From a phage: a stretch of DNA of 64,000 nt. Location of the stretch: the NCBI GenBank assembly GCA_020381345.1, contig GCA_020381345.1_3636.1; one strand, 5' to 3'. Position numbers and translations under genes: made by a program. Shown here piece by piece: positions 24,450-55,171 of the stretch (positions are counted from its first letter, which is position 1; every line of letters begins with the position of its first letter). Under the pieces are notes generated by a model, which was not told the DNA's origin, ran no database searches, and saw nothing but the letters and a program-made list of their open reading frames with translations.

Positions 24450-25412
24450 TCAGCAACTACAACTTCCATAGTGCTTAACCCGTTCTATAACTTCCGCTTG
24501 CTTACCTTTATTGTAAGGACGGGAGTTAGGACTGGAAAGGTATCCAGACACACGTCGAATTACACTGATCGTTCCCTCTTCATGGTTTCCACACTCTGGA
24601 CATACAAAGCCTCTAGCTGTTGCACTGAACTCACCAGAGAAACCACACTTGAGACATTTATCCACAGGCTGGTTGATACCAAAATACATAATGTGTTTAT
24701 ATCCGAAATCAACAAGAGCTTCCAAAGCATCTAAGTTGTTTTTCAGATTTGGTGTCTCTACGTATCCGATGTTGCCACCAGAGGAGATCATAGCAAAACC
24801 TTCCTCATACTCCCACTTATCAAAAGGAGAGCTATTGATCCATACTGGCTGATGGAAACTGTTGGTGAGATATTCATGCTCGTGCTTCAACACTTCAGGA
24901 TATTCACGATCCAGACAGGTTGCAGCTTTATAGCATAGACTCTCAGAAGGGGTGCCGTACAAGCTAAACGCTAGTCTACTTTCCTTCTTGTATCTCTCAC
25001 AAGCATCTCTCATGTGCTGAAGTATTCCAAGAGCTAAAGCCTTGTCACCCTCCCTGCCCAAAATCTGACAGGTTTCATACACACCAATATACCCAATACT
25101 GATGGAAGCGTACCCGTCATAGAAGAGTTTATCAATACTCTCTTCAGGGTCCAGGCGAGCAAGAGCGCCTTCACACCACATGATAGGGTTCTGCCCTGCC
25201 TTTGTCCCTTTTAGACGATTAACCCTTACAAGGTGAGCCTCGTATGCAAGATCCAGGTATTCGTCAAGAACTGCAAAGAAATCAACACCTTCCGTCTTAG
25301 CTTTTGCCGCAATCATTGGCAAGTTAAGGCTAACAACACCCAAGTTGAATCTGCCAAGGTATTTCTCCTCGCCTGTTACAGGGTCGCTATATTTCGATAA
25401 GAAACTTCTACA
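24450..25412 (-). CDS. nrdD: anaerobic ribonucleoside-triphosphate reductase NrdD, exon 3 of 3
   Basis: Starts CRSFLSKY and ends with glycyl-radical motif RRVSGYL; the track prefix MDLRTTLNIM is intron read-through. Confidence 0.8.
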   Translation of the reverse strand, partial: CRSFLSKYSDPVTGEEKYLGRFNLGVVSLNLPMIAAKAKTEGVDFFAVLDEYLDLAYEAHLVRVNRLKGTKAGQNPIMWCEGALARLDPEESIDKLFYDGYASISIGYIGVYETCQILGREGDKALALGILQHMRDACERYKKESRLAFSLYGTPSESLCYKAATCLDREYPEVLKHEHEYLTNSFHQPVWINSSPFDKWEYEEGFAMISSGGNIGYVETPNLKNNLDALEALVDFGYKHIMYFGINQPVDKCLKCGFSGEFSATARGFVCPECGNHEEGTISVIRRVSGYLSSPNSRPYNKGKQAEVIERVKHYGSCSC

Positions 25413-26174
25413 CATTATGTTCAGGGTGGTTCGCAAGTCCACCCCCGCACCTTTACGTGCTGCTGCATGTTCCCATGCAGATCAGACTATATCTTCACAC
25501 TTAGTGTGTCTACCATTTCGAGTGTCATCGGCTTACACCCTACACCGCTACATTCATCACGGTTAGTCGTTAGGCATTTCGTAACAGAACTCGTAATCAT
25601 AGTTATTAGGCGCACCACGTTTCAGGATAGCAGATATTCTTTTTCTATCCACTCCTAAAACATCAGCACAACATCTCAGACTTTTAAAGTGGAAAACCTC
25701 ACCAGTTAATTTGTTGGTGGCTTTCACACCGTGGCATCTTGTGTAAAAAGCATAACAGTTGTTGTTGTATCCTTCTTGCGTATTGTCTGGGCAAGCTCCC
25801 CACTCAAGGTTGTATACACTGTTATCTTTCCTGTTGTCCCCTTTGTGCTTAACATAGGGTAAATTGTCTGGATTTGGTAAGAACGCTTCAGCAACAAGTC
25901 TGTGAACCCTTAGGCAAACAGTCTTTTTGTTCTTGCGTATCCTAACAAGACGGTAACCTGTGTTTATCTCTTCCCACGAATGAATAATTCTTTCATTTTC
26001 GTAGCGGGTGCAATAAACATTGCCCATCTCGTCAATTTCATAACCTTCAAAATCACGAATTTGTTTTCTCATTTCAGGACTCCTCTTGGTCAGGAGTTCT
26101 GTTACGTTTAGCACGGGATTGTCCGTTCTGGAGTTTCCCCGTTTAGATAGATTTTACATGAGCAGTTATAGTTT
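25413..26174 (-). mobile_element. group I intron (nrdD intron 2) carrying an HNH homing endonuclease ORF
   Basis: 762-bp insertion between in-frame exons; exon ends in U and intron ends in G; contains CTAAACGGGG and ACAATCCCGTGCTAAA elements and a 3' block GATATAGTCTGATCTGCATGGGAACATGCAGC. Confidence 0.7.
25563..26072 (-). CDS. HNH homing endonuclease (intron-encoded, about 169 aa)
   Basis: HNH region RVHRLVAEAF..KHKGDNRKDNSVYNLEWG; RBS AGGAG before internal ATG; frame differs from nrdD. Confidence 0.7.
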   Translation of the reverse strand: MRKQIRDFEGYEIDEMGNVYCTRYENERIIHSWEEINTGYRLVRIRKNKKTVCLRVHRLVAEAFLPNPDNLPYVKHKGDNRKDNSVYNLEWGACPDNTQEGYNNNCYAFYTRCHGVKATNKLTGEVFHFKSLRCCADVLGVDRKRISAILKRGAPNNYDYEFCYEMPND

Positions 26175-26474
26175 ACCCATGCTCGTTACTTTACCATCTG
26201 TCGAGCCTGTCACTTTACGATTTAGTGGAACAGAGACAAAGTCAGGATAAATCCGCTCTGCAGAGCATTCCAGAGCTAATAGTTTCAAATCATAGTTAGG
26301 ATCTCCAGGGTTCATGTTGACACCCTCTTCTAGGAAGAACAGCACTTTAGGGAACACAGGTGTGATACGTTCTTCACCAAGACCCATTTTGTGGACTTTC
26401 AAGTAGTTTTTGGTAATCATTCTACCAAATACTGAGGTGTCCAGACCTAAACTTAATGTGATAAAAGGGGTTTG
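26175..26474 (-). CDS. nrdD: anaerobic ribonucleoside-triphosphate reductase NrdD, exon 2 of 3
   Basis: In-frame translation QTPFITLSLGLDTS..VFPKV..GDPNYDLKLLALECS..KVTGS..SMG matches the middle of E. coli NrdD. Confidence 0.75.
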
Positions 26475-26731
26475 CGGTCCCCACCCTTATGTTTCCACAA
26501 GGCCAGACTATCTCTTGCCTGAAATCACACCGTGTGATTCTTAATCAGACCTCTGCGTTTCGGAATCTTCCATAATCCCTACACCAAAAGGTTAGTCGTT
26601 ACAACCGCCTCACTCCTTGTGAAGCTAGTCACGGGATTGGCATAGCTTTCGCCTTAGCGTTCCCCGTTAGCCAGCGATCAGCTGACCCCTCATACTGAGG
26701 TTAGCAGAGTTTTAAAACGGCCAGTTTGTTA
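26475..26731 (-). ncRNA. group I intron (nrdD intron 1), ORF-less, about 257 nt
   Basis: Separates exon 1 (..NTLTSVNG) from exon 2 (QTPF..); the apparent exon 1 stop TAA is the intron start; GCCGTT near the intron 5' end can pair with exon end AACGGU; 3' end AGATAGTCTGG resembles the other introns. Confidence 0.6.
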
Positions 26732-27592
26732 ACCGTTGACAGAAGTTAACGTATTGATTTGATAGAGCAAAGTCTGCATGCTGTCAAACACGTCTTTATC
26801 TGTCATTTGCATTGCAACAGTCTCAGCATCTGGCAACCAATGTTCCTGGCAAAATTTAAGGTTCTTCTCATAGGTTGCTTCAGCATACTGTGCCAGATAA
26901 TGATCAATATGGCTCATAGTCTGACCACCATATTGAGCACTAGCTACCGCACTAGAGATTTGACTAAGGATTGTTGTTGCAACCCCTATTGACTTCGGCT
27001 TACTGACATGGGCGTTACCAATGTTGAATCCGTTTTCCAACATATCTGGATAATTTACCAAACAACAGTTTGTTAACGGACTGATCAAGTAGTCAAGATC
27101 ATGCACATGGATGAAGCCTCTATTGTGCTCTTCTGAGACACGGTCTGGCAGGATCTGTGTTGATGCAAGGTGTTTGCTAAGGATGCCTGCAAGCAGGTCA
27201 CGATGAGTGTGTACATGATTGGTAGGCTTATTTGCGTTTTCTTTTGTAAATTCATCACAAGTGCGATCCAAGAAGCCACTAATATCTGCAAGCAGTTTTC
27301 CACCTGCCTCTCTGTTATTATCTCTTGTCTGCCTATACTGGATGTATTCTCTGGCTGCACATTTTAAACCCATATCCATAAGAGCGTCTTCAACAAGGAT
27401 ATGGATATTTTTTACAGAGATCGTGCACTGGTCGGTTGGTAGATTGTTAGCAACAACTTCATTAACCGCGCAGGCGATCCGGTAAGCTTCTTCTTCAGTA
27501 TGTCCAGACTCAAGTAAGGCGGACTCTGCCGCCTTGATCACCTTAATTCCGTTATAGAACTCTTCTCTACCGTCCCGTTTTACAACTTTCAC
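26732..27592 (-). CDS. nrdD: anaerobic ribonucleoside-triphosphate reductase NrdD, exon 1 of 3
   Basis: N-terminal ATP-cone-like region MKVVKRDGREE and HRDLLAGI..HDLDY match class III RNR. Confidence 0.8.
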
Positions 27593-50499: not shown

Positions 50500-50574
50500 G
50501 CCCTGTTAGCTTAGTGGATAAAGCAGCGGCCTTCTAAGCCGTTGACACTGGTTCGAGTCCAGTACGGGGTGCCA
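50500..50574 (+). tRNA. tRNA-Arg (anticodon TCT)
   Basis: Hand-folded cloverleaf: acceptor GCCCTGT/ACGGGGT, anticodon loop CTTCTAA, T-loop TTCGAGT, encoded CCA. Confidence 0.7.
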
Positions 50575-50704
50575 AGTTCTTTTTAATGTAGCTTACTTTA
50601 GCAGAGTAAATCTTCGGCAAGTGGCGGTAACCACTTTACCGATACCTCATAGTTAGTGGTGAGAACACTAGCTATTTTAAAAAGAATTTAAATATTAGTA
50701 TTTA

Positions 50705-50792
50705 GGTGAGTTAATTCCGTAGGGGTAGCGGGGCAGACTGTAAATCTGTTATCATTGCGATTCGGGTGGTTCGACTCCATCACTCACCACCA
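50705..50792 (+). tRNA. tRNA-Tyr (anticodon GTA), long variable arm
   Basis: Acceptor GGTGAGT/ACTCACC, anticodon loop CTGTAAA, T-loop TTCGACT, CCA; 88 nt. Confidence 0.6.
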
Positions 50793-50906
50793 AATTTATA
50801 TTTTTAAATGCATAAATCATACAGATAATGGCATTGATATTTATCGTCGTTTATACTAGTCACTAACTGCTCGAAAATCAGTGTCATTATCAGTATTGTT
50901 TATAAA

Positions 50907-50997
50907 AGAGGGTAGGGAGCAATGGTGCTCAAGCGGTCTTGAAAACCGTCCCGTTGAGGATTACTCGATGATGGTTCGATTCCATTATCCTCTGCCA
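50907..50997 (+). tRNA. tRNA-Ser (anticodon TGA), type II
   Basis: Acceptor AGAGGGT/ATCCTCT, anticodon loop CTTGAAA, T-loop TTCGATT, CCA; 91 nt. Confidence 0.6.
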
Positions 50998-51095
50998 TAT
51001 TGTTGACCTTGTAATTAAGCGAAAGCCGGAAGCAGAACCGGATTATCAAATGTTACAGTCGTCATCGCCGACTAGCAACATGGTCAACATACTGA

Positions 51096-51192
51096 GCTAG
51101 GTAAGCCCTTTGGCAAGGGCGAGGATTTTTAATCCTGAAAATAGACGAGGTAGTCGTTGAATACATAGGTGGTTCGATTCCATCACCTAGCA
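51096..51192 (+). tRNA. atypical tRNA-like element (97 nt), anticodon uncertain
   Basis: Acceptor GCTAGGT/ACCTAGC, D-arm GCCC/GGGC, T-arm GGTGG-TTCGATT-CCATC, but non-canonical anticodon arm, 29-nt extra arm, A at position 8, no CCA. Confidence 0.35.
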
Positions 51193-51199
51193 CCTTTTT

Positions 51200-51275
51200 G
51201 CTGATGTAGCACAATTGGTAGTGCAATTGATTTGTAATCAATAGGTTGCAGGTTCAAGTCCTGCCATCAGCACCA
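51200..51275 (+). tRNA. tRNA-Thr (anticodon TGT)
   Basis: Acceptor GCTGATG/CATCAGC, anticodon loop TTTGTAA, T-loop TTCAAGT, CCA. Confidence 0.7.
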
Positions 51276-51276
51276 T

Positions 51277-51351
51277 GGCCCTGTAGCTGGAAGGTTCAAG
51301 CAAGCGACTCATAATCGCCAGACGGTGGTTCAATTCCACCCAGGGCCACCA
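51277..51351 (+). tRNA. tRNA-Met or Ile2 (anticodon CAT)
   Basis: Acceptor GGCCCTG/CAGGGCC, anticodon loop CTCATAA, T-arm GGTGG-TTCAATT-CCACC, CCA; D-stem weak. Confidence 0.55.
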
Positions 51352-51362
51352 AATAATGAATA

Positions 51363-51439
51363 CTCCGCGTAGCTCAGCTTGGTAGAGCGCCTGATTTGGG
51401 ATCAGGAGGTCGAGTGTTCGAATCACTCCGTGGAGACCA
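51363..51439 (+). tRNA. tRNA-Pro (anticodon TGG)
   Basis: Acceptor CTCCGCG/CGTGGAG, D-arm GCTC-AGCTTGGTA-GAGC, anticodon loop TTTGGGA, T-loop TTCGAAT, CCA. Confidence 0.7.
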
Positions 51440-51860: not shown

Positions 51861-52259
51861 ATGATTTCAGTTTTAACATGGCTGAGCAGGTATAGAGGGA
51901 TCATAAAAGGTTTAGTTTTTGCAGCTGCGATAGGTACAGCTTATCTTGGGGCCGTGTATTGGTTTAACTCTAAGCTTAATGATGCCTACCAAGAAGGTGT
52001 GTCAGCAACAGAGTTAAAGTGGGAACGGATCCTTGATCAGCAACAAAAGCAGGCCGACAAAATTAAAATGGGCCACGCAGAGGAGGTTAAAAACCTTGAA
52101 AAATCCCTTTCTGATCTACAGGATAAATTAAATATGGCTGAGAAGGCAGGTAAAGAAAAGCAGATTATTTACCTCCAGTCACCTGAGGGTAAGAAGTCAA
52201 CACTCCCTGATCAGCTTATAGATATTTATAATGAGAGTATTAATCAGGAGGGTAGATGA
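51861..52259 (+). CDS. i-spanin (Rz-like, 132 aa)
   Basis: N-terminal TM helix then coiled-coil periplasmic domain; overlaps the next lipoprotein gene by 4 nt. Confidence 0.6.
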   Translation: MISVLTWLSRYRGIIKGLVFAAAIGTAYLGAVYWFNSKLNDAYQEGVSATELKWERILDQQQKQADKIKMGHAEEVKNLEKSLSDLQDKLNMAEKAGKEKQIIYLQSPEGKKSTLPDQLIDIYNESINQEGR

Positions 52260-52543
52260 GAGTTGCTACACTGTTTATTGTGTGCTTGTTATTATGTGGG
52301 TGTGCAACCAGCGTTGAGAGAGAATACAAGATTGACCCTCCGGATGTAGGAAGGTTGATTGTTAAACCCCCAGAAGGTGCCATGAAACCACCTGCTAAAG
52401 CTATGCCTTTGAAGAAAGGTGCGCCAGATGCAGTGAATTCTGGCATTATGAGGGATAATAATCTGTCTTGTAGCAATGATAGAGCTAAATTGATCATTTT
52501 GCAAGACTATATTAGAACACTGTTTCCAAAGGAGAGAGGTTAA
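52256..52543 (+). CDS. o-spanin (Rz1-like outer-membrane lipoprotein, 95 aa)
   Basis: Signal peptide with lipobox LLLCGC and proline-rich mature region. Confidence 0.6.
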   Translation: MRVATLFIVCLLLCGCATSVEREYKIDPPDVGRLIVKPPEGAMKPPAKAMPLKKGAPDAVNSGIMRDNNLSCSNDRAKLIILQDYIRTLFPKERG

Positions 52544-53285
52544 TGTCTAAGATTTACGGACCGTGTTCTGAAAAGCAGAAGATGATCCTAGAAAACGATG
52601 CAGATATTTTGGTAATCGGCGGTGCCGCAGGGTCTGGCAAGTCGTTCCTCTTGCAGTTGATGCCACTTAAAATTATTGATGACCCCCACAGCTCTGTGGT
52701 TATGTTCCGAAGAACAACCCCGCAGTTGGAAGGTGAGGGTGGACTATGGCCTAAAGCAGTAGCTATTTATAGTGATCTGCCTGAAAACATTAAGCCAAAG
52801 TTCAGAGAGAAGGATCATAAGTTCATTTTTCCACGGTTTGATCCGAACACTGGTAAGTGGGATAGAAGCAAAAAGGGAGCTGTTGTAAAATACTGCCACA
52901 TGGAGTATGTACAAGATAAGCTTAACCATCAGGGGCTTGAGTACACCATGGTTTGCTTCGATGAGGGCACGCAGTTCGAATGGGAGCAGATAGACTATCT
53001 GATGTCTCGTCTGCGATCTCAGTCAAAGTATCCATCAAGAATGGTTATCAGCTGTAACCCCGATTCAGAACACATGCTTGCCAAACTGGTTAGATGGTGG
53101 TTGGACGATGAAGGGTATCCAGATCCGGAGAAATGCGGTAAGAAAAGATATTTTATCCGACGCGACGGTGAATTTATATGGGGAGACTCTAAAGAAGAGT
53201 TGATAGAGAAATACACCACGGTTAACGGACTGGGTGTGGAGATCAAGCCAAGACCGTTGTCATTCTCGTTTATAGGCGCAACCAT
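52543..53285 (+). CDS. terL: terminase large subunit, exon 1 (ATPase domain); 3' boundary approximate
   Basis: Walker A ILVIGGAAGSGKSF and Walker-B-like MVCFDEGTQ; apparent stop at 53290 lies inside the intron. Confidence 0.7.
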
Positions 53286-54264
53286 TAAATGATAGTGGCT
53301 TCGTGCAGAAATGCACGTCGAATAACTTCGTTAATTGCTGGAAAATCCGATTGCTAAACGGACAATCAGCAGCTATAATTACCCTTCCGAACCTGTAGTA
53401 GGGAGATGTTTGAAATGAAAAATTTAGGCTTTTTAGGCTACAATCATTATTGTGCTACATACGATGGCAGAATTTACAGTCTGTATTCTAATAAATTCCT
53501 CCATCCTAATGTGCAGAAAAAGACTGGCTATGCTATGGTAACTTTGTGCGAGGACGGTAAAAAGTTCCAAGTGCTCGTTCACAGAGTGATTGCTATGACT
53601 TTTGTTGATAATGATAATCCCAGCGTGAAAACTCAAGTAAATCACCTTGATGGCAATAAGTTGAATAACGCCGCATGGAACCTTGAGTGGACAACACCTG
53701 AGGAAAACACACATCATGCTCATGAAATGGGACTTAAAAAGGACTATGTCAATAAATACAGGTCCCTAGATGATGCCACTGCTCTTGAAATATGTAGACT
53801 GTTAGAGCAAGGTGCAAGGGTAAAAGACATTTGTGAAATGTTTGGTGTCAATCAACCACTTGTAAGTGGTATAAAGAATGGCTCAGTATACCCAGATATT
53901 TCTAAAGAGTTTAACTTTAGAAAAGTGCCAACCTCTAATAGGATAAGTGAGCACAAGATAATAGGTATCTGCGAGGATCTTAGTGATAGGGTTTTGTGTG
54001 TAAATAAAATAGCTAAGAAGTGGGGCGTAAGTTTTAGTGTTGTTAAAGGAATAAAAGACCGTAAGACTTACACCTATATTTCAAACAATTACGATTGGTA
54101 ATGTAGTTCAACGACTATCCCGAGAGGGAGTAGGGCGCAAGCTTATGGCGCTCGAAAAGCGAAGCACCCTGAGATGGGTGGTGATATAGTCTACTCTGCA
54201 TGGTAACATGCAGCGGCACGTAATGGTGCGGAGGGTGGTGTTGCGACCACCTTTGAATATAAGG
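53286..54264 (+). mobile_element. group I intron in terL carrying an HNH homing endonuclease ORF; boundaries approximate
   Basis: About 980 bp between the ATPase and nuclease halves; contains CTAAACGGACAATC and a 3' block nearly identical to nrdD intron 2. Confidence 0.65.
53406..54101 (+). CDS. HNH homing endonuclease (intron-encoded, 231 aa)
   Basis: HNH motif VLVHRVIAMTF..VNHLDGNKLNNAAWNLEW; own RBS GGGAG. Confidence 0.7.
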   Translation: MFEMKNLGFLGYNHYCATYDGRIYSLYSNKFLHPNVQKKTGYAMVTLCEDGKKFQVLVHRVIAMTFVDNDNPSVKTQVNHLDGNKLNNAAWNLEWTTPEENTHHAHEMGLKKDYVNKYRSLDDATALEICRLLEQGARVKDICEMFGVNQPLVSGIKNGSVYPDISKEFNFRKVPTSNRISEHKIIGICEDLSDRVLCVNKIAKKWGVSFSVVKGIKDRKTYTYISNNYDW

Positions 54265-55069
54265 ATTCGATAATCCTGTCTGCTTGAGAGACAACCCAGA
54301 ATACCTTGCTTTTCTTGAAGGTCTGCCCGAGCTTGAAAAAGCCCAGCTTCTTCATGGCAACTGGTTTGCAAAGCCTGAGGGTGCAAACTATTTTCAAAGA
54401 TCTTTCCTTCGTGATGCCGATAGAGTACCCCTTGGATCAGTATCTTGCAGGGCATGGGATAAGGCAGGAACCGAGAGAACTTCCGGTAATAAATTTCCTG
54501 ACTTTACCGCCAGTGTTAAGGTAAGTAAAGATAGCGACGGCTTTTATTACCTGTCCGGTGATTATTGTCCTGAGAACGTGGATGACGGGAGGTATTCCAC
54601 AGGTCTGGAAGGCAAGTTCTGTAAAAAGGCTGGTGAACGAGATGTGATCATCAGGAAACAGGCGCAGTTTGATGGTGATGATTGTATAATCGTATTCTCT
54701 GTGGACCCCGGTCAGGCAGGTAAGAGTGAGTTCTTAACATCCTCCAGATCCTTGCTCGCCGAAGGGTTTAGGGTTGAAGAAGACCCAATGCCTTCCAACA
54801 AATCTAAACTGACAAGGTTCTCACCTTTTGCCAATCTTGCCCAACAAGGAATGGTTAGGATTGTAAAATCCAGTTTCCATCCTGATACTCTGGAAGCATT
54901 TCTGACTGAACTTGAAAAATTCAACGGGGAAAGATCAACATTTAACAGGAAAGACGACTGGGCCGACTGTGTAGCTTCTGCGATTAATTTCCTGGAGAAA
55001 GAGGAGGTAGCACTTCCTTGTGTGATTCCATCAATCTCATCACCTTCTATGTTCAAGCGTTTTATCTAA
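54265..55069 (+). CDS. terL: terminase large subunit, exon 2 (nuclease domain); 5' boundary approximate
   Basis: Open frame continuous from 54263 with no ATG; acidic residues consistent with a terminase nuclease domain (IIVFSVDPGQAG, DDWADC); track start is TTG. Confidence 0.65.
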
Positions 55070-55118: not shown

Positions 55119-55148
55119 TAGCCCTCTAACACGAGGGCTATTTTGTTA
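55119..55148 (+). terminator. rho-independent terminator
   Basis: TAGCCCTC-TAACAC-GAGGGCTA followed by TTTTGTT. Confidence 0.6.
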
Positions 55149-55171
55149 TACTGTTTTGAGGGGTAAAGCTT

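Follow-up and report, generated by a model that had tools for sequence, protein, structure and literature searches.

In this study, the terL gene, which encodes the large terminase subunit, was analyzed in a stretch of 64,000 nucleotides (nt) of phage DNA (GenBank assembly GCA_020381345.1, contig GCA_020381345.1_3636.1; hereafter "the window"), and the gene is almost certainly interrupted by a 979-nt group I intron that carries an HNH endonuclease gene and is predicted to self-splice. This reading was adopted because the interrupted gene is colinear with intronless alleles, the insert contains a group I core, the helices of this core show covariation, and the open reading frame (ORF) within the insert is homologous to I-HmuI. 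The window is from an rV5-like coliphage of the genus Vequintavirus: over the 2.5-kb region concerned, it was approximately 98-99% identical to ECML-10, PDX, rV5 and many further Escherichia phages of this genus. The intron is already known from the annotation of the type phage rV5 and from a publication on it.

The two halves of the large terminase were found in separate reading frames on either side of the insert. The N-terminal ORF (52543-53292) encodes 249 amino acids, contains a Walker A motif (GGAAGSGKS, 52618-52644) and a Walker B motif (MVCFDEG, 52948-52968), and matched the Pfam family Terminase_6N with 62.3 bits (cut-off 22). The C-terminal frame opens at 54263 directly after a TAA, ends at 55069 and matched Terminase_6C. 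The N-terminal ORF, the HNH ORF and the C-terminal frame occupy three different frames (coordinate modulo 3 of 1, 0 and 2, respectively). In phage phiWec189, by comparison, terL is uninterrupted and 1,548 nt long, and the window aligned to it with a single 979-nt insertion. The alignment left a one-base ambiguity in the register of this insertion, and the splice-site rules of group I introns were used to choose between the two possibilities. Exon 1 was placed with its end at 53285 and exon 2 with its start at 54265 because only the register 53286-54264 satisfies both rules, with exon 1 ending in a U that forms the U53285.G53295 wobble of P1 and the intron ending in G54264, whereas the alternative register, one base later, breaks both. 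An earlier note on this DNA had proposed a group I intron with an HNH gene in terL and exactly these exon ends, which indicates that group I splice sites were placed correctly by a first-pass reader from the sequence alone. Its further statements, namely that the apparent stop of the Walker A/B half lies inside the intron, that the C-terminal frame from about 54263 has no ATG start, and that an out-of-frame HNH ORF separates the halves, likewise agreed with the present analysis, in which this ORF spans 53406-54101 in the third frame.

Removal of the insert restores an intact TerL. The terL join for this genome is 52543..53285,54265..55069, and when the spliced product was aligned to a full-length terminase, a check that the earlier note had named, its 515 amino acids were identical to phiWec189 TerL at 515 of 515 positions, with exon DNA that was 99.4% identical. 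In the TerL profile phrog_979, exon 1 covered positions 147-373 and exon 2 positions 374-621, such that the halves abut at 373/374. Furthermore, the match of the spliced protein to Terminase_6N extended across the junction (residues 25-294) and rose to 72.2 bits from the 62.3 bits of exon 1 alone, and Terminase_6C was matched at residues 394-489 with 27.9 bits. The Walker A and B motifs, the ATPase domain to which they belong and the RNaseH-like nuclease domain are all found in this one spliced polypeptide. The junction predicted from the sequence is GGCGCAACCAU joined to AUUCGAUAAUCC, and the ligated message would read ...ACC AU/A UUC GAU... (here and below, a slash within a sequence or between coordinates marks the insertion point). 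A sequence search of the PDB with the spliced TerL returned no match at E 0.01 or better.

The insert contains a complete group I core (Table 1). In a permissive Rfam scan, the Intron_gpI family was matched at 53276-53637 (24.4 bits, E 1.2e-3) and at 53975-54213 (34.8 bits, E 8.8e-7), and the intron is split into two sub-threshold matches because an ORF-containing insert of approximately 700 nt lies in the P6 loop. Alleles of the same site that lack the ORF were recognized as single matches, with 95.6 bits (E 2.9e-24) for the 268-nt intron of RudolfGeigy and 92.7 bits for the 266-nt intron of VB-EcoM-WM (gathering score 50), and the ORF-less core was identical to that of the window at 88 of 88 and 155 of 158 positions (243/246 in total). 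All 14 proposed helices are canonical at every pair in the window. Moreover, an unconstrained minimum free energy (MFE) fold of the 993-nt segment recovered 70 of the 71 nested pairs, the five P7 pairs forming a pseudoknot and thus lying outside what MFE folding can predict, and the fold of the ORF-less allele had a z-score of -4.49. In addition, the junction J2/3 (GUCGAAU, 53318-53324) shows 7-nt complementarity to the beginning of exon 2 (AUUCGAU, 54265-54271); this pairing appeared when the ORF-less allele was folded by MFE, is not in the usual place of P10, and may be due to chance.

The proposed structure was further examined in a MAFFT alignment of eight Rfam-delimited phage introns, comprising those of TimeGriffin nrdE, the RNA polymerase beta genes of AR9 and 201phi2-1, BOESR1 DNA polymerase, RudolfGeigy terL at the upstream of the two terL intron sites (site 1 below), two ORF-less alleles of the site occupied in the window (site 2), and the core of the window, in which an artificial GAAA loop replaced 53384-54096. 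Four of these related introns (Bacillus phage TimeGriffin, AR9, 201phi2-1 and Ralstonia phage BOESR1) reached 87-102 bits in Rfam. The copy in phage Av-05, which is the closest divergent one (84% identity), was left out, as the origin of its record cuts the region and the terL pieces lie on both strands. Across the alignment, 87.1% of the cells were paired compared with 34-43% in slid controls, and changes on both sides were seen in 30 of 65 pairs compared with 9-14 in the controls; none of 500 shuffles reached the observed values. Double changes were seen in both P7.1 and P7.2. P7, in contrast, was invariant across the eight introns, which is expected of the helix that binds guanosine. The low score of P1 (59.5% paired) is explained by the fact that this helix involves a different exon in each of the introns and that structure is disregarded when MAFFT aligns it. 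Hundreds of phage introns, located in td, nrdB, nrdD and the genes for DNA or RNA polymerase, also resembled the core at the DNA level, among them T4-type td, T4 nrdB, Staphylococcus phage introns and introns of T7-like DNA polymerase genes. By its P7.1 and P7.2, the intron of the window would belong with the phage IA (IA2-like) introns; the position of these helices between the 5' strand of P7 and the 3' strand of P3 is the mark of subgroup IA in the Michel-Westhof scheme.

Exon 2 offers no in-frame ATG until 54788, and its sole early start-like codon, TTG at 54284, has no purine-rich Shine-Dalgarno-like stretch within the 20 nt upstream. These features speak against the explanation that the insert stays unspliced and that TerL is translated as separate ATPase and nuclease polypeptides, which would then assemble, even though non-splicing HNH insertions that split genes do exist (CB7_245, and NrdA/mobE of Aeromonas phage Aeh1; PMC7344957) and the terL halves of relatives are listed as separate coding sequences in many GenBank records. 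Moreover, the insert has a covariation-supported group I core with the correct U.G pair at its 5' site and a terminal G, and the ORF-less 268-nt insert still breaks the gene in 18 records, which is sensible only if it is removed from the RNA. A terminase made in two pieces was accordingly considered very unlikely. Two further candidates were rejected: an intein, as the frame of exon 1 stops 5 nt into the insert and the ORF of the insert is out of frame with both exons, and a free-standing endonuclease splitting terL, which was ruled out by the ribozyme core. It was also considered whether terL is a pseudogene, either because the insertion is degenerate or inactivating or through an artefact of assembly; nothing specific favored this, apart from automated annotations in which the halves are frequently called 'hypothetical protein'. 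Tailed phages cannot do without TerL, the same arrangement was found at 98% identity or more in at least 14 independently sequenced and propagated lytic phages, and the exons are conserved at all 515 amino acids relative to the intronless allele. This recurrence in viable isolates effectively refutes a pseudogene or artefact, to which we assign hardly any probability at all.

The ORF of the intron is predicted to encode a homing endonuclease of the I-HmuI type. The protein matched Pfam HNH_3 with 28.0 bits (cut-off 24.8), with helix-turn-helix (HTH) domains alongside, I-HmuI (PDB 1U3E) over residues 8-151 with E 3.6e-11, and phrog_59 'HNH endonuclease' with E 1.8e-50. Two similar HTH-like segments were seen by eye in its C-terminal half, of which Pfam matches the first only (residues 119-154). 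The sequence GGGAG at 53401-53405 lies 9 nt upstream of the ATG at 53415 and would favor this start over that at 53406, and the annotated start varies among records. The stop codon TAA (54099-54101) falls within the 3' strand of P6a. The ORF is located in the peripheral loop between the P6a strands, where it is optional, as the ORF-less allele differs in that loop only. The ORF of the td intron is presumably located in P6 as well.

The earlier note had also suggested that the HNH enzyme could assist packaging, and in a stronger form this would make it an accessory nuclease of the HK97 gp74 type that owes its place in terL to this function and not to selfish mobility. HNH endonucleases whose genes lie beside cos sites and the genes for terminase form an established class (PMC3592412), and a packaging role of the terL HNH protein has been speculated on in the CB7 paper (PMC7344957). 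However, the gene is not conserved across close relatives: only 15 phage records contained it at 95% identity or more, whereas terL is uninterrupted in approximately 95 close relatives and holds the intron without the ORF in 18. The gene is dispensable for packaging in the genus because most close relatives lack it and nevertheless package their DNA well, and the natural ORF-less and intronless isolates already suggest that its loss leaves packaging normal. Furthermore, the combination of I-HmuI/HNH_3 with HTH is the architecture of intron homing nickases, and no CxxC motif was found in the 228-amino-acid sequence, in contrast to the zinc-binding [CxxC]2 site of the cos-associated class described in PMC3592412. 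The suggestion of the earlier note was therefore not supported, and an accessory packaging nuclease is extremely unlikely, although a non-essential stimulatory role is formally conceivable.

Under the favored reading of a mobile intron, terL would be transcribed as one pre-mRNA from 52543 to 55069, and the 53286-54264 insert would fold as a group I ribozyme. As expected from the intron family, exogenous guanosine would attack the phosphodiester after U53285, the freed 3'-OH of exon 1 would then attack after G54264, and the exons would be ligated into a message for a 515-amino-acid large terminase with a Terminase_6N ATPase and an RNaseH-like nuclease. Ribosomes translating RNA that still holds the intron would halt at the TGA 5 nt into the intron. 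During mixed infection, the HNH enzyme would probably nick or cut the intronless terL of related phages, and recombinational repair would copy the intron with flanking exon bases into the cut allele, which constitutes homing.

Several observations weigh against this reading. At the gathering threshold (50 bits), an Rfam scan of the whole window returned only tRNAs, and the intron family RF00028 was not reached. The P1 loop and the first bases of exon 2 were inspected for a canonical P10, and no convincing pairing was seen. Moreover, no experimental splicing data for this particular intron were found in the literature, and the splicing evidence by reverse transcription PCR (RT-PCR) from Pectobacterium phage CB7 (PMC7344957) concerns a different insertion site, after Walker B. 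A further point concerns the expression of the HNH gene. A sigma-70-like site lies just upstream of the ORF (Table 1), its TATAAT belongs to the ORF cassette and is absent from the ORF-less allele, and it may be a candidate promoter, to be taken as a lead; the region, however, holds 8 sigma-70-like sites where 7.5 are expected, which is the chance level.

Among vequintaviruses, terL was found to have two intron sites, each of which occurs in three states: empty, with an ORF-less intron, and with an intron that carries an ORF (Table 1). At site 2, which is the site of the window intron, approximately 95 records are uninterrupted, 18 hold the ORF-less intron and 14-15 the HNH form. The intron interrupts a FIGATI/FDNP motif that is kept in the 60%-identical TerL of CB7. 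The synonymous codons flanking site 2 follow the state of the intron, with ACC AT/A where it is present and ACA ATC where it is absent, and C53283 is required for P1. The corresponding junction is ...GCAACAATCTTCGAT... in intronless terL (phiWec189 or FFH2) and ...ACCATATTCGAT... in the intron-containing or spliced type. The flanks of site 1 also differ, with GGT/ACA in the presence of an intron and GGC or GGA followed by ACG in its absence. None of the approximately 95 uninterrupted alleles was identical to the spliced junction; the nearest, and the only one within one mismatch, was APECc02 (NC_041869, positions 61-150), whose hybrid ACA ATA TTC combines a 5' base of the intronless type with a 3' base of the intron type and may be a trace of intron loss or partial co-conversion.

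The patchy presence of the intron among relatives that are 95% or more identical, together with the linked flank bases, is the pattern expected of a mobile intron whose flanking markers are co-converted. It is possible, and is suggested here tentatively, that terL offers a complete snapshot of the intron/endonuclease life cycle, with two sites in three states each, in which the recoding of the flanks keeps P1 paired and may protect against cleavage; the enzyme, if it cuts the intronless terL of co-infecting phages, would then serve as a weapon in competition (marker exclusion) directed at a packaging gene that is essential. No such two-site, three-state survey of this genus was found in the papers searched, and the polymorphism at two terL sites among near-identical phages is the one modestly new observation of this study. 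It could provide a natural system for intron gain, ORF loss and intron loss. The practical worth of the findings lies in annotation, as terL has been left as fragments or 'hypothetical proteins' in ECML-10, PDX, HdK5 and VB-EcoM-WM.

Table 1. Features of the terL region of the window and states of the two terL intron sites among vequintaviruses.
Feature	Position	Strand	Description
terL exon 1	52543..53285	+	amino acids 1-247 and two bases of codon 248; ATPase domain with Walker A and Walker B
ISCNP motif (terL exon 1)	53047-53061	+	
Group I intron	53286..54264	+	979 nt, IA-type; absent from phiWec189 and JES2013 alleles
TGA in exon 1 frame	53290..53292	+	5 nt into the intron; apparent stop of the N-terminal ORF
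P1	53282..53298	+	exon CCAU and intron UA pair with UAGUGG; 5' splice site after U53285 (U.G with G53295)
P2	53303..53316	+	hairpin GUGCA-GAAA-UGCAC, GNRA loop
P3	53326-53331 with 54159-54164	+	
P4	53336-53341 with 53366-53371	+	
P5	53346-53349 with 53359-53362	+	
P6/P6a	53372-53383 with 54097-54107	+	loop between the strands holds the HNH ORF
Sigma-70-like site TTGCTA-17-TATAAT	53351..53379	+	10/12 matches, best in region; just upstream of the HNH ORF
Predicted HNH homing endonuclease ORF, I-HmuI-like	53415..54101	+	228 amino acids, in P6 loop; alternative ATG 53406 gives 231 amino acids
Catalytic core, 3' half	54113..54191	+	P7, P7.1, P7.2, P3 3' strand, P8, J8/7
P7	54113-54117 with 54187-54191	+	pseudoknot
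P7.1	54118-54129	+	
P7.2	54133-54153	+	
P8	54165-54180	+	
P9	54196-54213	+	GUAA loop
P9.1	54216-54229	+	
P9.2	54233-54252	+	
Terminal intron guanosine (omega G)	54264	+	3' splice site directly after
terL exon 2	54265..55069	+	last base of codon 248 to stop; end of ATPase (FDNP...) and RNaseH-like nuclease domain
Terminator-like hairpin and T-run	55119..55150	+	3' of the terL stop; equivalent rV5 position annotated as Rho-independent terminator
Site 1	52968/52969	+	directly after the Walker B codons (GAT GAG GGC / ACG); empty in window, ECML-10, PDX, phiWec189, VB-EcoM-WM
Site 1, ORF-less intron			319 nt; rV5, RudolfGeigy; 84 bits in Rfam
Site 1, intron with ORF			883 nt, endonuclease VII ORF; JES2013, HdK5
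Site 2 (FIGATI/FDNP), empty			phiWec189, JES2013
Site 2, ORF-less intron			268 nt; RudolfGeigy, VB-EcoM-WM (266 nt in VB-EcoM-WM)
Site 2, intron with HNH ORF			979 nt; window, rV5, ECML-10, HdK5

Another gene of the window, nrdD (24450-27592, minus strand), is also in three pieces, with ORFs at 27592-26729, 26420-26166 and 25442-24450. Two sub-threshold Rfam group I matches were found in this region. The match at 26741-26485 scored 29.2 bits and seems to lack an ORF, and that at 25568-25463, with 35.3 bits, looks like the 3' half of a second nrdD intron that holds an HNH ORF (26114-25563). The gene is polymorphic among relatives, in which it is often annotated as nrdD_1, nrdD_2 and nrdD_3. Across both terL and nrdD, the records MG065635-MG065690 ('Campylobacter phage' A142, C7, A135 and others) matched rV5-like coliphages at 96-98% identity, and their host label, Campylobacter jejuni, looks doubtful.

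The gene order around terL is that of the rV5 map: terL is preceded by a tRNA cluster and then two spanin genes, and is followed by a terminator-like hairpin and the portal gene. The genes for the i-spanin (51861-52259) and the o-spanin (52256-52543, with a lipobox-like LLLCGC) lie immediately 5' of terL with overlapping stop and start codons, and this location beside terL instead of in a lysis cassette has also been described for rV5, CB7 and PVP-SE1. In the tRNA cluster (50500-51439), ARAGORN called Arg(tct), Ser(tga), Thr, Met and Pro, as well as a 99-nt 'tRNA-???' with a four-base anticodon at 51096-51194 (Rfam tRNA, 35.5 bits). At 50705-50789, a tRNA was found by Rfam (39 bits) without an ARAGORN call.

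With respect to known systems, the window offers a textbook case of a mobile group I intron, which carries a homing-endonuclease gene and sits in a phage gene that is both essential and conserved. Among its closest counterparts is the intron of rV5, for which Kropinski et al. (2013; PMC3606486) included a section entitled 'Introns in terminase' and thanked D. Shub for help in locating the intron; in the RefSeq record NC_011041, terL is a three-piece join ('ORF64ABC') around the HNH ORF65. The rV5 gene shares the insertion site, the HNH-containing intron and approximately 98% identical DNA with the window, but it has an extra 319-nt ORF-less intron after the Walker B codons, where the window is empty. 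In RudolfGeigy (BASEL collection, MZ501102), terL is likewise recorded as a three-piece join. The site 2 introns of RudolfGeigy and VB-EcoM-WM (PQ014731) have the insertion site and, nearly unchanged, the core of the window, whereas their distal P6 is a short hairpin (CCUGA-AUAU-UCAGG) in place of the cassette of approximately 700 nt with the HNH gene and TATAAT.

Beyond the genus, two other phages have been described in which the gene for the large terminase contains a group I intron. The HNH intron in terL of CB7, a Certrevirus of the same subfamily, splices, as demonstrated by RT-PCR and Sanger sequencing (PMC7344957). It differs from that of the window in lying at the Walker B site (FDEG/TQF), which corresponds to site 1, and CB7 terL is uninterrupted at FIGATI/FDNP. 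The classical precedent is the terL intron of Lactobacillus phage LL-H (Mikkonen and Alatossava 1995), as cited in PMC3606486 and PMC8785237, although LL-H is an unrelated siphovirus. Similar to T4 td with I-TevI, T4 nrdB and the DNA polymerase intron of Pf-WMP3 with I-PfoP3I (PMC3428280), the intron of the window interrupts a phage gene at a conserved motif, and it shares with these IA2 introns the P7.1 and P7.2 helices between P7 and the 3' strand of P3 and an endonuclease ORF looped out from a peripheral helix. It is distinguished from the td-type systems by its host gene and by an I-HmuI-like HNH enzyme in place of the GIY-YIG enzyme I-TevI. Finally, I-HmuI, an HNH homing nickase encoded by the DNA polymerase intron of Bacillus phage SPO1, is homologous to the protein of the window in its HNH catalytic and N-terminal DNA-binding regions; both are intron-encoded, and I-HmuI is shorter, with 174 amino acids compared with 228.

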